A stretch of 64,000 nucleotides of DNA from NCBI GenBank assembly GCA_964576925.1, contig CAZNWJ010000004.1, positions 55,218 to 119,217 of the forward strand. The letters are read 5' to 3'. The notes beneath the pieces were generated by a model. That model was given only the letters and a program-made list of their open reading frames with translations, did no database searches and was not told the origin of the DNA. Both the position numbers and the translations under genes were made by a program. This document shows, one piece after another, positions 16,099 to 25,454 of the stretch. Positions within the stretch are counted from its first letter, which is position 1, and every line of letters starts with the position of its first letter. The DNA comes from an uncultured Ignavibacteria bacterium. Lineage in GTDB: Bacteria; Zixibacteria; MSB-5A5; CAIYYT01.

Positions 16099-17202
16099 TC
16101 AGGCACACGGCGGCGGGCCGCCGGCGAAGATGTAGTTGATCAGGTAGATCGCATCCGAGATGTTGACGAGGCCATTGCTATCGGCATCACCCGCCCGGAG
16201 CGGCACCGGCGGAGGTCCACCTCCGAAGATGTAGCCGATGATGTAGATCGCATCGGAGATGCTGATCACCTGGCTGCCGTCGGCATCGCCGCAGAGGTAG
16301 GCGAACTCGATAGTAAGCATGGCACTGGTGAGCGGAGTCGAGGCCGACCAGGTATCGATCATTAAATAGTATTCTCCCGGAGGGAGCACGAGTTGTTCGA
16401 TTCCGAACGGGTTGGCGAGATTGCTGGTTGCGGAAGCGATACAGCTGCTGCCCACGGGACAGTCAGAACTGATCAAAAAGGCGCTGCCGGCAACCTGTCC
16501 GGGATCAAGAGTGAAATTCAGTCCCAGGGCACTGGCAAGCTCAAAAGAGTAGAACAGATCTTCACCGAGATCGTAGCCGCCGAGACAGGTGGCTGTATAG
16601 TCGTTTCCGGATCCCGCATTCGAGAATGGGCCTTCAGTGAAAGGAAGTTCCGCCGGAGTGAGGGTTCCGAAACCGAGCGGGAGATTGCAGTCGACGCCCC
16701 AGGGATCGACGAAGACCTCGTTGACCGTCACGTCGAATTCGGGGATGCATTCCGGAGCCGGCCAGGTATCGACGATGATGTAGTAGATGCCTGCCTCGAG
16801 CATAACCGGCGGTGTGTAGTGCGGTACACCGGTAGATTTCGTGCTCATGGCTAGGCAGTCACCGTCCGGCGGGCAGGTATCGTCGATAGCGATACCGGTC
16901 CAAGCAGTGCCGTGAGGATTCAGTTCAATTACCGCGAACATGAAGCTAAGAATCTCCAGGCGAATAATGTAATCCTCGCCATTGTCGTAGCTACCGAGGC
17001 AGGTTGAATTGTAGTCGTCGATGTGGCCGCAGGTTGTGAGTGCGGGAAGTTGAACGATCATCGAGCCGGGATAAAAGGTGACTTCATGCGCTGATTCGCA
17101 TTTGCGATTCACCGATTCCGGGTCGGCAGTTTCTGCCGGCAGGCGGGCTGAGCCTATAGCAATAGTGGCGGCGACCAGAAACGCCAGGGACTGGAAGCGC
17201 AT
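16099..17202 (-). CDS. Secreted protein of unknown function with an internal ~130-aa duplication and a dockerin-like C-terminal tandem module
   Basis: Signal peptide. Two internal repeats (TCLGSYDNGEDY... and TCLGGYDLGEDL...). C-terminus CGDADGSQVISISDAIYIIGYIFGGGPPPVPLRAGDADSNGLVNISDAIYLINYIFAGGPPPCA. Confidence 0.6.
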   Translation of the reverse strand: MRFQSLAFLVAATIAIGSARLPAETADPESVNRKCESAHEVTFYPGSMIVQLPALTTCGHIDDYNSTCLGSYDNGEDYIIRLEILSFMFAVIELNPHGTAWTGIAIDDTCPPDGDCLAMSTKSTGVPHYTPPVMLEAGIYYIIVDTWPAPECIPEFDVTVNEVFVDPWGVDCNLPLGFGTLTPAELPFTEGPFSNAGSGNDYTATCLGGYDLGEDLFYSFELASALGLNFTLDPGQVAGSAFLISSDCPVGSSCIASATSNLANPFGIEQLVLPPGEYYLMIDTWSASTPLTSAMLTIEFAYLCGDADGSQVISISDAIYIIGYIFGGGPPPVPLRAGDADSNGLVNISDAIYLINYIFAGGPPPCA

Positions 17203-18137: not shown

Positions 18138-18916
18138 ACTGCCGGGAAGTATTAGCTAAGCTGTACGACTACCTTGACGAAGAGCTGACCGCATCAGACC
18201 GTCAAGACCTCCAGAAGCACCTCGAACACTGCAGCGATTGCCTGCACAAGTATAATCTCGAAGAACAGTTCAATCGCGTAATCGCCGGCAAGCTTGACTC
18301 GCCGTGCGAGACGAGCCAGTTGAAGAAGCGAATCCTGGTGGAGATCGCCAAGATCGACCAGCAACAGGGCGGAGCAGCATCCCCGGGGCGGCGCAATATT
18401 CTTTACCTGTTCATGCCGATTGCCGCCGCGGCGCTGGTGGCTCTCATTCTAATCAACCCGTTTTCGTCCAAAGGTTCGGTCCTGGAGGCGGTTTATCCGT
18501 TTGCACACGAGCACAGCAAGTGTCTCGATCACGTAATGCAGTACATCGTGCAATCGCACGATCCGGCGGAAGTGCGGGCGGCGCTACAGCACATTGGCGC
18601 GATGCCTGATGATCTCTTTGCGCCGGCAACGGACGGGCAATTCCAGTTAGCGGGCGCGGCGATTGCGCATGTCAACAATCATGACCGGGTACACCTCGAC
18701 TACTCCTATAAGGGAGATGCCATCTCAGTATTTGTCCTCGATAAGAACACAATCGACAAATCGCACTTCGATCGTATGGAACATAATGGCAAGACGATTT
18801 ACGCCGGTTCGTGCCCGAAATTCCAGTATGTAATCTGGGAGTGCGAGCAGCATGAATGTGTAGCGGTGAGCCTGATTGACGAAGAGAAGCTGATTGATTT
18901 TGCTTCGGTATTTTAG
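18134..18916 (+). CDS. Anti-sigma factor (zf-HC2 type) with one TM helix and a periplasmic C-terminal domain
   Basis: N-terminal motif [16 protein letters not shown]...[33 protein letters not shown]. Overlaps the sigma gene by 4 nt (ATGA). Confidence 0.75.
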
Positions 18917-18998
18917 AGCTTAACGACAACGGAATCGACTTCAGATCGCCGGCGGTGGAAACATCGGCGGCGATTTTGGTTTGGGGGGAAATTTGTGA

Positions 18999-19028
18999 TT
19001 GACAGGCGCTGGGAATAATTGATATCAT
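18999..19028 (+). promoter_or_regulatory. Candidate promoter of the R-M island
   Basis: TTGACA at 18999-19004, an 18-nt spacer, and an extended -10 of TG-n-TATCAT at 19020-19028. Confidence 0.4.
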
Positions 19029-19169
19029 CGCTCTTGAAATGCTCAGAGAGGGTGGTGTAACATCGGAAAGCACATCTTAATTCGAGACATTCCGGAAGAA
19101 GTTGAGGGCTGGATTGAGGAAGAACGAAGTCGGTCGCTCCAGAGCCAGAAGGAGTTTCTTCTCGGGATA

Positions 19170-20288
19170 TTGAAGCAGGCAAAGCGTGGTAACGTCGAGC
19201 CGAATCTCTTTGAGAAACCGGCTCCACGTATCGCGCCTCGGGCAATTGCGGCCCCCTTCGTGTTCATTGATCTCTTTGCAGGAATCGGAGGCTTCCGTAT
19301 CGGCCTCGAACGACTGGGCGGGCGTTGCGCGTTTTCATGTGAATGGGACAAGAACGCTCAAAGAACTTATCATGCATGGTTTGGTGAGATTCCTGCCGGT
19401 GACATTCGTAACGTCAATCCATGCGACATCCCTGATCATGACTTGTTGGCAGCGGGATTTCCCTGTCAGCCATTTTCAATTGCTGGCGTGTCCAAGAAGA
19501 ACAGCCTGGGTCACGAACACGGATTCAAGGACAAGACCCAGGGTACTCTATTCTTCCACATAGCCGAGATCATGCAGATGAAGAGACCTCCGGTTGCGAT
19601 TCTGGAGAATGTGAAGAATCTGCTTTCACACGAACGAGGTCGAACATGGCAGGTCATCAAGTCGACACTTGAAGAATTGAATTACGTCGTGTTCCACAAG
19701 ATCATAGATGCGTCCGGCTACGTGCCTCAGCACCGCGAAAGAGTCTTCATTGTCTGCTTTGACAAGGAGGTCTTTGGGGCCAACCCCGACTTTAGTTTCC
19801 CAGCGCCGGTCTCTGACACTGCGCCGAAGTTCAAGTCTATTCTTGAGAAGAAACCAGGCTCGAAGTATATTCTGACTGACCATCTTTGGGAATACCTGCA
19901 GAACTATGCTGCTGCGCACAAAGCGAAAGGCAATGGCTTTGGATTTGGAATGACGGACCTGAATGGAGTGAGTCGAACCCTGAGCGCTCGCTACTACAAG
20001 GACGGATCAGAGGTCTTGATCCCCCGAAATGGTGGCAACCCCCGCAGATTAACTCCACGGGAGGCCGCACGATTGATGGGTTTCGATGATTCGCTTGAGA
20101 TCGTTGTTTCGGATACGCAGGCCTACAAGCAGTTCGGGAACGCGGTTGTACCGGCGGTCGTGGAGGCTGTCGGGGGCGAAATTGTCAAGACCATGTTGCT
20201 CAAGTTTCAGATGATCGAGAATGGGTGTTTGCTCAAAGGACGAGACATCACTGTGAACTCGAATAAGGACATGATGATCGGAGGCTAG
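19170..20288 (+). CDS. dcm: DNA (cytosine-5)-methyltransferase
   Basis: Motif I FIDLFAGIGGF, IV GFPCQPFS, VI ENVKNLL, VIII QHRERVFIV, X GNAV. TTG start. Low local GC. Confidence 0.95.
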   Translation: MKQAKRGNVEPNLFEKPAPRIAPRAIAAPFVFIDLFAGIGGFRIGLERLGGRCAFSCEWDKNAQRTYHAWFGEIPAGDIRNVNPCDIPDHDLLAAGFPCQPFSIAGVSKKNSLGHEHGFKDKTQGTLFFHIAEIMQMKRPPVAILENVKNLLSHERGRTWQVIKSTLEELNYVVFHKIIDASGYVPQHRERVFIVCFDKEVFGANPDFSFPAPVSDTAPKFKSILEKKPGSKYILTDHLWEYLQNYAAAHKAKGNGFGFGMTDLNGVSRTLSARYYKDGSEVLIPRNGGNPRRLTPREAARLMGFDDSLEIVVSDTQAYKQFGNAVVPAVVEAVGGEIVKTMLLKFQMIENGCLLKGRDITVNSNKDMMIGG

Positions 20289-20292
20289 GGCG

Positions 20293-21273
20293 ATGAACAT
20301 TACAGGTTTGCTTAAAGGCTCTGAGTGGGACTATCCGTTCTTTAAGGTGCTGGCAAGAAACGACACCGGAGAGGCTCAAGGACATCAATCCGGATTAGTC
20401 CTTCCCAAAGACCTGCGAGACTACATGCCTGCACTTGAAGAACATAATGTCTCACAGATCTTTCCCACCGTGGATAGAATCCTCACTGCAGAGTTGTACA
20501 AGGGCAGAGTTCTTCTCGACAAATCAAGCCTTCGTTACCAGATTCAAACATGGGGTGGGAAGCGAACGCCGGAGGCGCGAATTACTGCAGGCATTCGAAC
20601 TTTGACGAATCTGGCGAAAGTTGGGGACATACTTGTATTTCAGAGGCGAATCGACTCGGTCGAGGAGTATCGCTTAATATTAATCGAAAGAGCTTCGGCA
20701 GAATATCGTGCTATCGAACGCTTGGTAGCAGGTAGAAAATGGGGCCCACTTAATGCACGTGCTGCTCCAATAACAATTGAGCAGTTTTCGCAAGCCAAGG
20801 AAGAGATGATGCAGACCGCCGACAAAACATTCAGACTGCAGGCAGAACCGCGAAGAATCTCAGGCACTGGCGTTACAAGGATCGCAAGAGACTCTGCATT
20901 CCGCGAAGTAGTAAAGCTACAATATGCGTTCAAGTGTTCGATCAGTGGATATGGGCTCTCTACACAGAGTTCTCACTACGAGGTGGAGGCAGCTCACATA
21001 GTTCCGAAGGAGCACGGAGGACCTGACGACCCACGAAACGGACTATGCCTTACACGCACTTTGCACTGGGCGTTTGATCGGGGCCTAATTGGCGTTACCA
21101 CTGAAAGAAGGGTGTTTATTCCGGAAGATATCAGGTCAATGCCTCAGAACGACTTGCTGCTGCAATTTGACGGGAGGCCTCTTGCAATCCCAAAGAATCC
21201 GAATCTTGCTGCTCACGAAGATGCGCTAGCCTGGCACAGAACGAATGTAGTTCGAGCCTTGGACCATGGTTGA
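20293..21273 (+). CDS. Putative restriction endonuclease: uncharacterized N-terminal DNA-recognition region plus C-terminal HNH nuclease
   Basis: HNH motif EAAHIVPKEHGGPDDPRNGLCLTRTLHWAFDRG at the C-terminus. Sits between dcm and vsr on the same strand. The N-terminal ~200 aa have no obvious family. Confidence 0.65.
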   Translation: MNITGLLKGSEWDYPFFKVLARNDTGEAQGHQSGLVLPKDLRDYMPALEEHNVSQIFPTVDRILTAELYKGRVLLDKSSLRYQIQTWGGKRTPEARITAGIRTLTNLAKVGDILVFQRRIDSVEEYRLILIERASAEYRAIERLVAGRKWGPLNARAAPITIEQFSQAKEEMMQTADKTFRLQAEPRRISGTGVTRIARDSAFREVVKLQYAFKCSISGYGLSTQSSHYEVEAAHIVPKEHGGPDDPRNGLCLTRTLHWAFDRGLIGVTTERRVFIPEDIRSMPQNDLLLQFDGRPLAIPKNPNLAAHEDALAWHRTNVVRALDHG

Positions 21274-21679
21274 TGTCCTGACACCTGGTCAGCGTCGCAA
21301 GAATATGGCTGCGATAAAGTCACATGACACGAAGCCTGAACTCAGAGTTAGACGCGTTGTACATAGACTCGGATTTCGCTTTGCTCTTCACAAGAAAGAC
21401 CTCCCAGGAAAGCCTGACTTAGCCCTGACGAAGCATCGAAAGGTCATCTTGGTTCATGGGTGTTACTGGCACATGCACAATTGCAGGTACGGACGCGTAG
21501 TTCCGAGAACAAACGCTCGGTTCTGGCGTGCAAAACGCGAGACAAACGTTGAAAGGGATCGCAGAAACCTCAGAGAGCTTCGTAAGCTGAAATGGAAAGT
21601 ACTCGTTGTTTGGGAGTGTCAAACAAGAAATCAAGAGAGATTGAAAAGGCGACTTCAGAAGTTTCTATTCAGCAACTGA
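21266..21679 (+). CDS. vsr: Very-short-patch repair endonuclease (T:G mismatch)
   Basis: N-terminus TPGQRRKNMAAIKSHDTKPELRVRRVVHRLGFRFALHKKDLPGKPDL. Catalytic region HGCYWHMH. Overlaps the HNH gene by 8 nt. Confidence 0.9.
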   Translation: MVDVLTPGQRRKNMAAIKSHDTKPELRVRRVVHRLGFRFALHKKDLPGKPDLALTKHRKVILVHGCYWHMHNCRYGRVVPRTNARFWRAKRETNVERDRRNLRELRKLKWKVLVVWECQTRNQERLKRRLQKFLFSN

Positions 21680-21707
21680 AGTATTGGCTTGCTGGCTTCC
21701 TCGCCCC

Positions 21708-22685
21708 CTACCATCCTAGCACGATGGCGAACATCAGCGGGGCGACGATCGAGGCGTCGGATTCGATGATGTACTTCGGCGTGTCGATTCCCAACTTGCC
21801 CCAGGTGATTTTCTCGTTGGGGACGGCGCCGGAATAGGACCCGTAGCTGGTGGTCGAGTCGCTGATCTGGCAGAAGTAGCCCCAGACCGGGACATTGGTG
21901 CGCTGCAGGTCCTGGTGAAGCATCGGTACGACGCAGATCGGGAAATCACCCGCGATGCCGCCGCCGATCTGGAAGAAGCCGATTGTCGATTTCTTCGTCG
22001 TGGCGGTGTACCAATCGGCGAGCCAAGTCATGTATTCGATGCCGGTGCGGACGGTGTGGACGTTCTTGATGTCGCCTTCAATGCAGTGTGCCGCATAAAT
22101 GTTGCCCATGGTGGAGTCTTCCCAGCCGGGCACGACGATGGGGAGATTCTTCTCGGCGGCGGCGACCATCCAGGAATCTTTCGGGTCGATCTGGTAGTGC
22201 AGCTTGAGCGCGCCGGAGCGGATAATCTTGTACATGAACTCGTGCGGGAAATGGCGCTCACCGGCTTTGTCGGCCTTGAGCCATTCGTCGAGGAGGACTT
22301 TCTCGAGCCGACGCAGTGCTTCCTCTTCCGGAATGCAGGTATCGGTAACGCGATTGAGGTGACGGTCGAGCAGGGCCTGCTCATCGTGCGGCGTCAGGTC
22401 GCGATAGTGCGGCACGCGCTCGTAGTGATCGTGGGCGACCAGATTGAAGAGGTCTTCCTCGAGGTTGGCGCCGGTGCAGCTAATGATGTGCACCTTATCG
22501 CGGCGAATCATTTCGGCAAGAGAGAGGCCGAGCTCGGCGGTGCTCATGGCGCCGGCCAGCACGACCATCATCTTGCCGCCGGTTTCGACGTGATGAACGT
22601 AGGCGTTGGCGGCGTCGATCATGGCGGCCGCATTGAAATGGCGATAGTGATGCTTCAGGAACCTGGTGATTTCGCCGTTGCTCAT
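21708..22685 (-). CDS. Deoxyhypusine synthase-like protein (DHS family; bacterial polyamine metabolism)
   Basis: Core IISCTGANLEEDLFN and GGGIAGDFPICVVPMLHQDL match DHS-like NAD-binding domain signatures. Confidence 0.8.
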   Translation of the reverse strand: MSNGEITRFLKHHYRHFNAAAMIDAANAYVHHVETGGKMMVVLAGAMSTAELGLSLAEMIRRDKVHIISCTGANLEEDLFNLVAHDHYERVPHYRDLTPHDEQALLDRHLNRVTDTCIPEEEALRRLEKVLLDEWLKADKAGERHFPHEFMYKIIRSGALKLHYQIDPKDSWMVAAAEKNLPIVVPGWEDSTMGNIYAAHCIEGDIKNVHTVRTGIEYMTWLADWYTATTKKSTIGFFQIGGGIAGDFPICVVPMLHQDLQRTNVPVWGYFCQISDSTTSYGSYSGAVPNEKITWGKLGIDTPKYIIESDASIVAPLMFAIVLGW

Positions 22686-23543: not shown

Positions 23544-25454
23544 ATGAGACGTTTGCTACTACCCCTTGTCATAATCGTCCTCACAACTCTCTCTCTGCAA
23601 GGCGCTGATTTGTACAAAGTTACGATCAGCGGCGCGGATGAGGCCAAGACTCTTCAAGCGCTGGGACTGGACGCCGTTGTCAAGATCAGCGATGGCTATC
23701 TGGTCATAGTGGATCAAGGTGAGGCGGCACAGTTGCTCAATTCGGAGTTGAAATCTGTGCGAATCTTCTCGGGGATCAACCGAAATGAACTCGCGCTTGA
23801 TCTGCGCACCAACGACGAGAACGCCGGGCGGTTTGAGTTGGTGTTTCAGGAGGGCGGGCTGCGGTTGTTCTATGTGCCCGGAGGTTATGATCCGAGTTCA
23901 GAGATGACGCCTTCGCTGATGCCGTTGCCGGCATCGCTGCGAATTTCGTATCGCGAGCCGCGGACCGGGGCGCCGAAGGGTATGCCGACGTCGACGGCGC
24001 TGGAATCGTTGCTAGGGACGATTTCGCAGGATTCGCTATACTCCTACGTCGCTAAGTTGCAGAGCTACTACCGCCGGCTGGCCGGAACGCCGAGTATCTA
24101 CCTGGCGCGCGACTGGATAAAAGCCAAATTCGAGTCGTTTGGTTACGACTCGGTTTATCTTGACGGTTGGCAGCAATACTTCAACGGCCAGATGAACAAT
24201 TGTTACAATGTCGTCTGCGTCAAGGTCGGAACGACGTATCCGGACCTGGAGATTATCGTAGGGGCGCATCATGACGGCGTCTACAATTCACCGGCGGCGG
24301 ATGACAACGGTTCCGGAACGGCGGGCGTACTGGAAATGGCGCGGGCGTTGGCCGATACGCCGACGGAAGTGACGTTCAAGTTCATTACGTTTGACGCCGA
24401 GGAGTTTGGGCTTTACGGGTCCTACCATTATGTCAATGGCGCTGTCGCGCGAGGGGATCAGATCCTGGTGATGCACAACATGGATATGATCGCGTTTCTT
24501 TACAATTCCAATGCGGCGACGGTTTACCATGGCGATGACCCATTCTACGCTCAATGGTGGTCCAATATCGCGCAAGCCAATTACGGGATTACCGGCTATT
24601 TAAGCGGCAACAGCTCGGGATCTGACCACTACCCGTTTACACAGAACGGTTACGATGCGCTGTTTATAATCGAGGACATCTTTTCGAGTGTCTATCACAG
24701 TCCGCGCGACAGCACGACGTACATGAATTTCGAGTACATGAACCGCATGGTGCGCGCATCGCTGGCGATGGTCTATGCGGTGGCGAATGGCGGGGATTTT
24801 GACAACGACGGCGTGCCCAATACGCAGGACAATTGCGTCTTCAATCCTAACCCTGCGCAGGAAGATCCTGACGGCGATTTGATTGGCAGCGCCTGCGACA
24901 ACTGCCCCGACTATCCGAATCCCGGACAAGAGGATGAAGACGGCGACGGAGTCGGCGACTACTGTGACGGCAAGGTGCATGTAACGGCGATTCGACTTCC
25001 CGACGCCTACTATGGAGAGCCTTACAACTATCAATTTGAATGCATCGGCGGGACCGGACCGTTTAGCTGGTCGTTCTTCGGAGGTGATCTGCCGTTTGGC
25101 TGCGATTTCCAGAGCCCGGCCGGAATCCTGACCGGCACACCGAGCTACAAAGCGACCTTCTACTTCACGATTGCAGTTCTCGATGCCGGGACGCCGCCCA
25201 GCGCCGATACACAAAGTGTGTGGATTGTTGTCACCGACCCCGGGTATTTGTGTGGCGATGCTGACGCCAGCGGCAACGTGACGGTGTCAGACGCGGTGTT
25301 TATTATCAACTACATTTTTGGCGGGGGACCGGCGCCGAATCCTGACGAGCGCGGGGATGTCGACTGTACGGGTATGACGACCGTCTCGGATGTCGTCTAT
25401 CTGATCAATTATATATTCGGCGGTGGGGCAGCGCCCTGTGCAGCGTGTCCTTGA
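23544..25454 (+). CDS. Secreted M28-family aminopeptidase with thrombospondin type-3 Ca-binding repeats, an Ig-like domain and a dockerin-like C-terminal module
   Basis: Signal peptide. M28 metal ligands ([38 protein letters not shown]). TSP3 repeats [46 protein letters not shown]-terminus [31 protein letters not shown]...[29 protein letters not shown]. Confidence 0.85.

Follow-up and report, generated by a model that had tools for sequence, protein, structure and literature searches.

An EcoRII-N-like reader joined to an HNH nuclease: a candidate Type II restriction endonuclease in a Dcm-Vsr cassette of an uncultured Ignavibacteria bacterium

What kind of nuclease is encoded between a gene for a cytosine methyltransferase and one for a mismatch endonuclease, and which part of it would recognize DNA? 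The question is raised by a three-gene cassette in a stretch of 64,000 nucleotides (nt) from an uncultured Ignavibacteria bacterium (assembly GCA_964576925.1, contig CAZNWJ010000004.1, positions 55,218 to 119,217 of the forward strand; the window), in which a protein of 326 amino acids (aa), here called R, lies between a Dcm-like C5-methyltransferase (M) and a Vsr endonuclease. An earlier note on this DNA had proposed R as an HNH restriction enzyme candidate and had found no assignable match for its N-terminal part. Our analysis supports the assignment of that part to the B3 domains of the EcoRII-N type, and R is likely to be the nuclease of a Type II M-R-Vsr cassette, in which the B3 domain would read unmethylated CCWGG and the HNH module would cut nearby.

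The ATG-initiated open reading frame (ORF) of R was confirmed in the window (Table 1), together with both peptide strings previously quoted from it. It is a real gene, with 705 homologues in a large protein collection, nearly all of 320-330 aa, the nearest non-identical one sharing 50% identity (E = 7e-99). The cassette, in the order M, R, vsr, is tightly packed and operon-like: the stop codon of M is followed after 4 nt by the start of R, GGAGG lies 8 nt 5' of the R ATG, and at the junction of R and vsr the stop codon of the one and the ATG of the other lie in an overlap of 8 nt (ATGGTTGA).

An AlphaFold2 model of R (predicted local distance difference test, pLDDT, 93.3; predicted template modelling score, pTM, 0.88) divides the protein into two domains. 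The N-terminal domain spans approximately 165-175 aa, not the 200 or so first proposed, and is followed by a linker of about 15 aa that is the sole internal dip in confidence (pLDDT 70 for the block 181-190); residues 177-192 of the model are without regular secondary structure, and the family alignment is poorly conserved across this segment. Invariant residues are also found at the extreme N-terminus (W12, D13, and P15) and in the last helix (A311, W314, and H315), away from the DNA-contact and catalytic residues; together with the pTM value they hint at a conserved inter-domain or dimer interface in the modelled protein, possibly an autoinhibitory one.

By profile and by predicted fold, the N-terminal half belongs to the EcoRII-N/B3 pseudobarrels, a known family. 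Pfam EcoRII-N (PF09217) is matched at E <= 0.01 by 50 of 52 relatives of R (best 2.7e-7), many homologues carry a precomputed match to it, and the R family profile finds EcoRII-N structures at 6.3e-5. The predicted fold matches the same structures, as a pseudobarrel whose N-arm and C-arm form a DNA-binding cleft. Comparison with EcoRII-N and B3 folds, which the earlier note had suggested, was the right check, although the new specificity domain that it envisaged for an HNH enzyme is not likely, since the family is known and all seven EcoRII base contacts are kept.

These contacts bear on what R may recognize. In EcoRII-N the bases of CCWGG are contacted by Asn28, His36, Gln37, Tyr85, Arg94, Glu96, and Arg98 (Golovenko 2009; PMC2770665). 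HMMER alignments place Asn23, His31, Gln32, Tyr82, Arg91, Glu94, and Arg96 of R at these positions, seven identities out of seven, and each is conserved in 111-121 of 121 R relatives; the phosphate contacts Lys23 and Thr100 are retained as Lys18 and Thr98. R His31 (nt 20383-20385) corresponds to His36 of EcoRII, the residue that contacts the outer C:G pair, and this position is occupied by Asn in seven and by Lys in one of the 121 family members; such proteins could be specificity variants.

Methylation of the inner cytosine at C5, on either strand, abolishes binding by EcoRII-N in experiments, an effect attributed to clashes with Tyr85 and with a water molecule held by Gln37 (PMC2770665); both residues are present in R. 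The N-terminal domain is thus predicted from homology to be the DNA-recognition module, as had been presumed, with specificity for CCWGG and sensitivity to its methylation.

The C-terminal HNH motif, already recognized in the earlier note, corresponds to a match to Pfam HNH_2 (PF13391) at aa 215-268 (E = 1.4e-13, 50.9 bits against a cutoff of 21). The five residues that serve catalysis or metal binding in TagI (listed in PMC6212794) have H235, N249, H258, D245, and D262 as their aligned counterparts in R, and these are conserved in 117-121 of the 121 relatives; in structure comparison this half of the model has a TagI-like fold. Of the TagI cysteines C210, C213, C248, and C250, only the first (C215 in R) is conserved across the R family. 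TagI is a dimer held together by its HNH domains and cleaves both strands at RYN/RY. In the SBD-HNH enzymes the reader sets the site, and cleavage by the HNH domain falls N4-N7 beyond it, leaving a 3' stagger of 1 nt (N7/N6 for EcoWI and N5/N4 for Ksp11411I); the HNH module has a loose preference of just 2-4 bp, and deprived of the reader such an enzyme is a loosely specific or non-specific nickase (PMC7461809).

The HNH module also occurs alone (aa ~140-320, 30-37% identity), joined to unrelated N-termini, on many rhizobial and haloarchaeal plasmids and in an archaeal virus; examples include Rhizobium plasmids and a match at 2304-2762 in Haloarcula hispanica pleomorphic virus 4. From these alignments it appears to be a widely shuffled nuclease cassette.

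The gene upstream of R encodes a predicted maker of C5mCWGG. M matches the NCBIfam models PRK10458 (Dcm, E = 5.6e-106) and TIGR00675 (above cutoff) and the PADLOC model DrmMII (E = 1.5e-137), and shares 47% identity with Dcm of E. coli K-12 along aa 30-325, the target-recognition region included. Class 2 DISARM has been reported to yield 5-methylcytosine (5mC) in CCWGG, and another DrmMII methylates a different motif. M is without the N-terminal extension of about 85 aa found in Dcm and M.EcoRII (the alignment begins at aa 30 of M and aa 87 of Dcm). In M.EcoRII this extension is described in the literature as a fused repressor domain; because M is without it, autoregulation of the M.EcoRII kind seems unlikely here. 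The ORF of M starts with a TTG codon (window 19170-19260). The Vsr protein downstream of R is 44% identical to E. coli Vsr.

Two independent lines, the contact residues of the B3 domain and the Dcm-like partner, agree on CCWGG, and for this reason we infer that R reads the unmethylated form of this site. The expectation that R would recognize the same site as its partner and discriminate its methylation state is borne out to this extent, that by homology CCWGG should be read and its methylated form rejected.

Relatives of R were found in 298 species representatives, mostly metagenome-assembled genomes but also cultured strains, from the Verrucomicrobiota, Planctomycetota, Bacteroidota, Alpha-, Beta-, and Gammaproteobacteria, and other groups; in public databases they are annotated as "HNH endonuclease" or "putative restriction endonuclease". 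For the linkage scan one genome was taken per species, 80 loci were fetched, and M- and Vsr-like genes were located by tblastn; a locus was counted as complete if it extended for at least 2.5 kb to either side, as 51 did. A Dcm-like gene (48-62% identity to M of the window) lies within about 2 kb of the R homologue in 50 of these 51, and vsr is present in 38. At least four gene orders occur: M-V-R (15 loci), R followed by convergent V and M (12), M-R-V (eight), and M-R without vsr (eight); dcm and vsr are adjacent in many of the loci. Plasmid pTha01 of Thauera aminoaromatica carries a relative of R in the order dcm-vsr-"HNH endonuclease". R is both adjacent to and co-inherited with a methyltransferase, as a nuclease of a Type II restriction-modification (R-M) system should be, and since the linkage to M persists through rearranged gene orders the two are best regarded as a functionally coupled R-M pair. 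The description of R as an HNH restriction enzyme candidate with a Dcm-like partner is in agreement with the HNH_2 match, the identity of M to Dcm, and this linkage.

The GC content of the cassette (0.49-0.52) is lower than that of its flanks (0.54-0.60; window 18500-21800), which, taken with the surroundings described below, suggests an old horizontal acquisition. The patchy spread over many phyla, the plasmid copy, and the low GC content fit a mobile R-M module.

On these grounds a mechanism can be proposed. The pseudobarrel of R would bind the unmethylated 5-bp site from the major groove by means of EcoRII-N-like N-arm and C-arm residues, and 5-methylation of the inner cytosine would exclude it, as with EcoRII-N. 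A short flexible linker would tether a ββα-Me HNH nuclease of little specificity of its own, which would cut close to the bound site; M would place C5mCWGG on host DNA, so that the reader could not dock there, and Vsr would repair T:G mismatches arising from deamination of 5mC. In BfiI and NgoAVII, which we take to be among the structural matches of the R domain, specificity comes from the B3 domain alone. By analogy with these two enzymes, we infer that the B3 domain of R is the main determinant of specificity and is not confined to an allosteric role, as it is in EcoRII and UbaLAI.

Cut position and oligomeric state can likewise be predicted by analogy: the cut would fall a few bases outside CCWGG; an HNH dimer like that of TagI may make it, or it may have a 3' stagger of one base, as in the SBD-HNH enzymes. 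EcoRII-N binds its pseudo-palindromic site in one orientation, set by the central T:A pair (PMC2770665), and because of this R may cut on a defined side of its site.

Several observations weigh against this picture. R by itself matches PF09217 at only 18.6 bits (E = 0.0017), under the gathering cutoff of 25 bits; judged by its relatives, the domain is present and the low score is due to the divergence of this one sequence. An extra residue in the C-arm loop (R91-T-P-E94 against R94-N-E96 of EcoRII), the sole structural difference noted in this comparison, could shift the contacts. In both characterised CCWGG enzymes with an EcoRII-N-type domain, EcoRII and UbaLAI, the domain is an allosteric effector and not the sole reader. 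The high pTM implies a fixed, possibly autoinhibited, arrangement of the domains in the DNA-free protein, and cleavage and specificity in the R family are deduced from homology and context. Finally, the window shows no depletion of CCWGG (157 sites, observed/expected ratio 0.94, unremarkable among all pentamers); this last point is neutral, as it indicates no more than a host that depends on methylation, and it favours none of the models.

The strongest alternative builds on the third of these points. R may be organized like a Type IIE enzyme, the B3 domain serving only as an effector or tether on one CCWGG while the HNH module, with the linker and flanking helices, reads and cuts a second, so that at least two sites would be needed. 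Besides the precedent of EcoRII and UbaLAI, the confident inter-domain geometry would fit an autoinhibited apo form like that of EcoRII, and HNH domains of the TagI type dimerise and have some sequence preference (RYN/RY). We consider this arrangement unlikely, because the HNH module is only about 135 aa long and gives no sign of an independent 5-bp reader; its relatives have the loose preference noted above and merely nick, non-specifically, once the reader is removed. A further DNA-binding domain in R was not detectable with Pfam, NCBIfam, or structure comparison. BfiI and NgoAVII, moreover, are precedents for a B3 domain as the only determinant of specificity.

A role outside defence is more doubtful. 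Alongside Vsr and Dcm, R could take part in the repair or regulation of CCWGG sites, either as a site-specific nickase or as an accessory factor, or else it could be a decayed, inactive remnant; it has a single HNH active site, its relatives often nick, vsr is frequently co-located, and the site is not avoided in host DNA. The strong conservation of the catalytic residues across phyla speaks against decay, the linkage is tighter to M than to vsr, and the patchy spread over some 298 species, the plasmid copy, and the lower GC content fit the mobile R-M module better.

It is highly improbable that R is a modification-dependent nuclease (Type IV or IIM) attacking modified foreign DNA, although its nuclease half would by itself point that way: the solved close structural relatives of the HNH module (TagI, VcaM4I, EcoKMcrA, and ScoMcrA) are all modification-dependent, and the best NCBIfam match of R is the phosphorothioate-dependent family NF045808. 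That match covers only aa 184-321, in the C-terminal half, with 96.4 bits against a cutoff of 180. The reader is of the B3 type, not SRA, EVE, SBD, or NEco, and its EcoRII counterpart is blocked by 5mC; with a Dcm-like methyltransferase in nearly every complete locus, dependence on C5mCWGG would be suicidal, and PUA-HNH modification-dependent enzymes have been reported to adjoin methylases only rarely. Membership of R in the reader-HNH families of TagI, VcaM4I, NF045808, or McrA was accordingly rejected on the B3 domain, the partial NF045808 match, and the adjacent M; the HNH module alone is what they have in common.

That R belongs to a homing-endonuclease or phage-packaging (terminase-associated) HNH family, the case named beforehand as the one that would overturn its candidacy, is scarcely credible: its matches to PHROG "HNH endonuclease" families are weak and partial (E = 0.03 and 0.048), the stronger PHROG matches are to families of no assigned function and cover the HNH half only, no full-length relative was found among 50,697 phage records, and R sits in an M-R-Vsr operon with no intein, intron, or terminase context around it.

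The coordinates of the cassette and its parts are collected in Table 1. A promoter-like site lies approximately 140 nt upstream of the M start, and between the three genes no terminator-like site was found on the + strand, except for a weak one within the M gene.

Table 1. Features of the M-R-Vsr cassette (positions in the window)
Feature	Position	Strand	Basis
Candidate sigma-70-type promoter	18999..19028	+	TTGACA-18-TATCAT with extended TG; 11/12 consensus; consensus match only
M, C5 cytosine DNA methyltransferase, Dcm/M.EcoRII-like, predicted C5mCWGG maker	19170..20288	+	Pfam DNA_methylase, E = 4.4e-84
R, restriction endonuclease candidate, 326 aa: B3 (EcoRII-N-like) reader, linker, and HNH	20293..21273	+	ORF, homologues, AlphaFold2 model
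B3-like/EcoRII-N-like DNA-binding pseudobarrel, aa ~10-176; predicted reader of unmethylated CCWGG	20320..20820	+	
Inter-domain linker, aa ~177-192	20821..20868	+	pLDDT dip, poor alignment conservation
HNH (ββα-Me) module of TagI/McrA/SBD-HNH type, aa ~193-326	20869..21270	+	Pfam HNH_2 core, aa 215-268 (nt 20935-21096)
Vsr, very-short-patch T:G mismatch endonuclease	21266..21679	+	TIGR00632, E = 1.9e-39 (above cutoff); Pfam Vsr, 1.3e-28

The cassette is bordered on one side by genes for an extracytoplasmic function (ECF) sigma factor and zf-HC2 anti-sigma pair, and on the other by polyamine genes (deoxyhypusine-synthase-like and pyruvoyl arginine decarboxylase). Around it there are no tRNA genes, no integrase among the neighbours, and only short repeats at chance level; the dip in GC content, a modest one, is the sole hint of a mobile element. 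On either side lies a gene for a predicted secreted protein (16099-17202 on the - strand and 23544-25454 on the + strand) with a terminal Dockerin_1 domain (E ~3-5e-5), accompanied in the + strand protein by an M28 peptidase domain and a thrombospondin type 3 repeat; the pair may bear on the host lineage.

Beyond the single locus, R and its relatives in about 300 species representatives may form a widespread, uncharacterised Type II class, in which the HNH chassis of modification-dependent enzymes carries an EcoRII-type reader, the exchange of readers inverting "cut if modified" to "cut unless modified"; cleavage would be Type IIS-like, at a short fixed distance outside CCWGG and on a side dictated by how the central A:T pair is oriented. 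We put this forward tentatively, rating its chances a little short of even. Should R behave as predicted, HNH would be the third nuclease superfamily coupled to B3-type readers in restriction enzymes, beside PD-(D/E)XK and phospholipase-D, and the family would be a natural example of interconversion between Type II and Type IV through reader exchange on one nuclease chassis; a CCWGG-directed, methylation-sensitive enzyme with cleavage outside the site could also be obtained from it. On the same condition R would be a compact, well-predicted two-domain scaffold for engineered fusions of readers and nucleases. A functional annotation is offered for several hundred genes labelled only "HNH endonuclease". 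For specialists the surprise is moderate, as domain shuffling among restriction enzymes is well established.

No restriction enzyme combining B3 or EcoRII-N with HNH, and no CCWGG-specific HNH enzyme, was found in the full-text literature, although a characterisation recorded only in REBASE or unpublished could exist. The sole paper found to join EcoRII-N and HNH concerns the Menshen system, and the screens of HNH-fusion architectures from the Xu and Bochtler groups report PUA, DUF3427, and SBD readers only (one of these is PMC7461809).

Among characterised systems, EcoRII (Type IIE, /CCWGG; PDB 1na6 and 3hqf) provides the closest parallel for the reader, with an overall identity of about 22% between R and EcoRII-N and the replacement of EcoRII Y41 by V36. 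Its catalytic half, EcoRII-C, is a PD-(D/E)XK nuclease that flips the central base and itself reads CCWGG, whereas R has an HNH module there; the alignment of R with EcoRII ends at about aa 100-150, and no counterpart of EcoRII-C was found. R was for this reason rejected as an EcoRII orthologue, its C-terminal half being HNH_2 with a TagI-like fold. Because HNH replaces the CCWGG-reading EcoRII-C, the B3 domain of R is probably the sole reader and not an effector, unlike that of EcoRII. UbaLAI, a monomeric Type IIE enzyme (CC/WGG), differs from R in the same respect, with an MvaI-like PD-(D/E)XK catalytic domain that recognizes CCWGG by itself; UbaLAI also departs from EcoRII at several B3 contact residues, while those of R match EcoRII exactly.

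BfiI and NgoAVII/CglI combine a B3-like domain with a phospholipase-D nuclease, whereas the nuclease of R is of the HNH superfamily; their recognition sequences differ from that predicted for R, whose contact residues are of the EcoRII type, and in BfiI the domain order is the opposite. With TagI, ScoMcrA, VcaM4I, EcoKMcrA, and the SBD-HNH enzymes (EcoWI and SprMcrA) R has the HNH module in common, but its reader is predicted to bind an unmodified site; these reader-HNH enzymes are Type IV, while R lies beside its cognate methylase, and this inverted logic would place it in Type II. The dcm-vsr pair of E. coli K-12, to which M and Vsr of the window are related, is without a linked nuclease; in the window the R gene intervenes between the two. 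By analogy with these systems, R would work like a hybrid, with the reader of EcoRII, the design of BfiI, and the nuclease of TagI or EcoWI.
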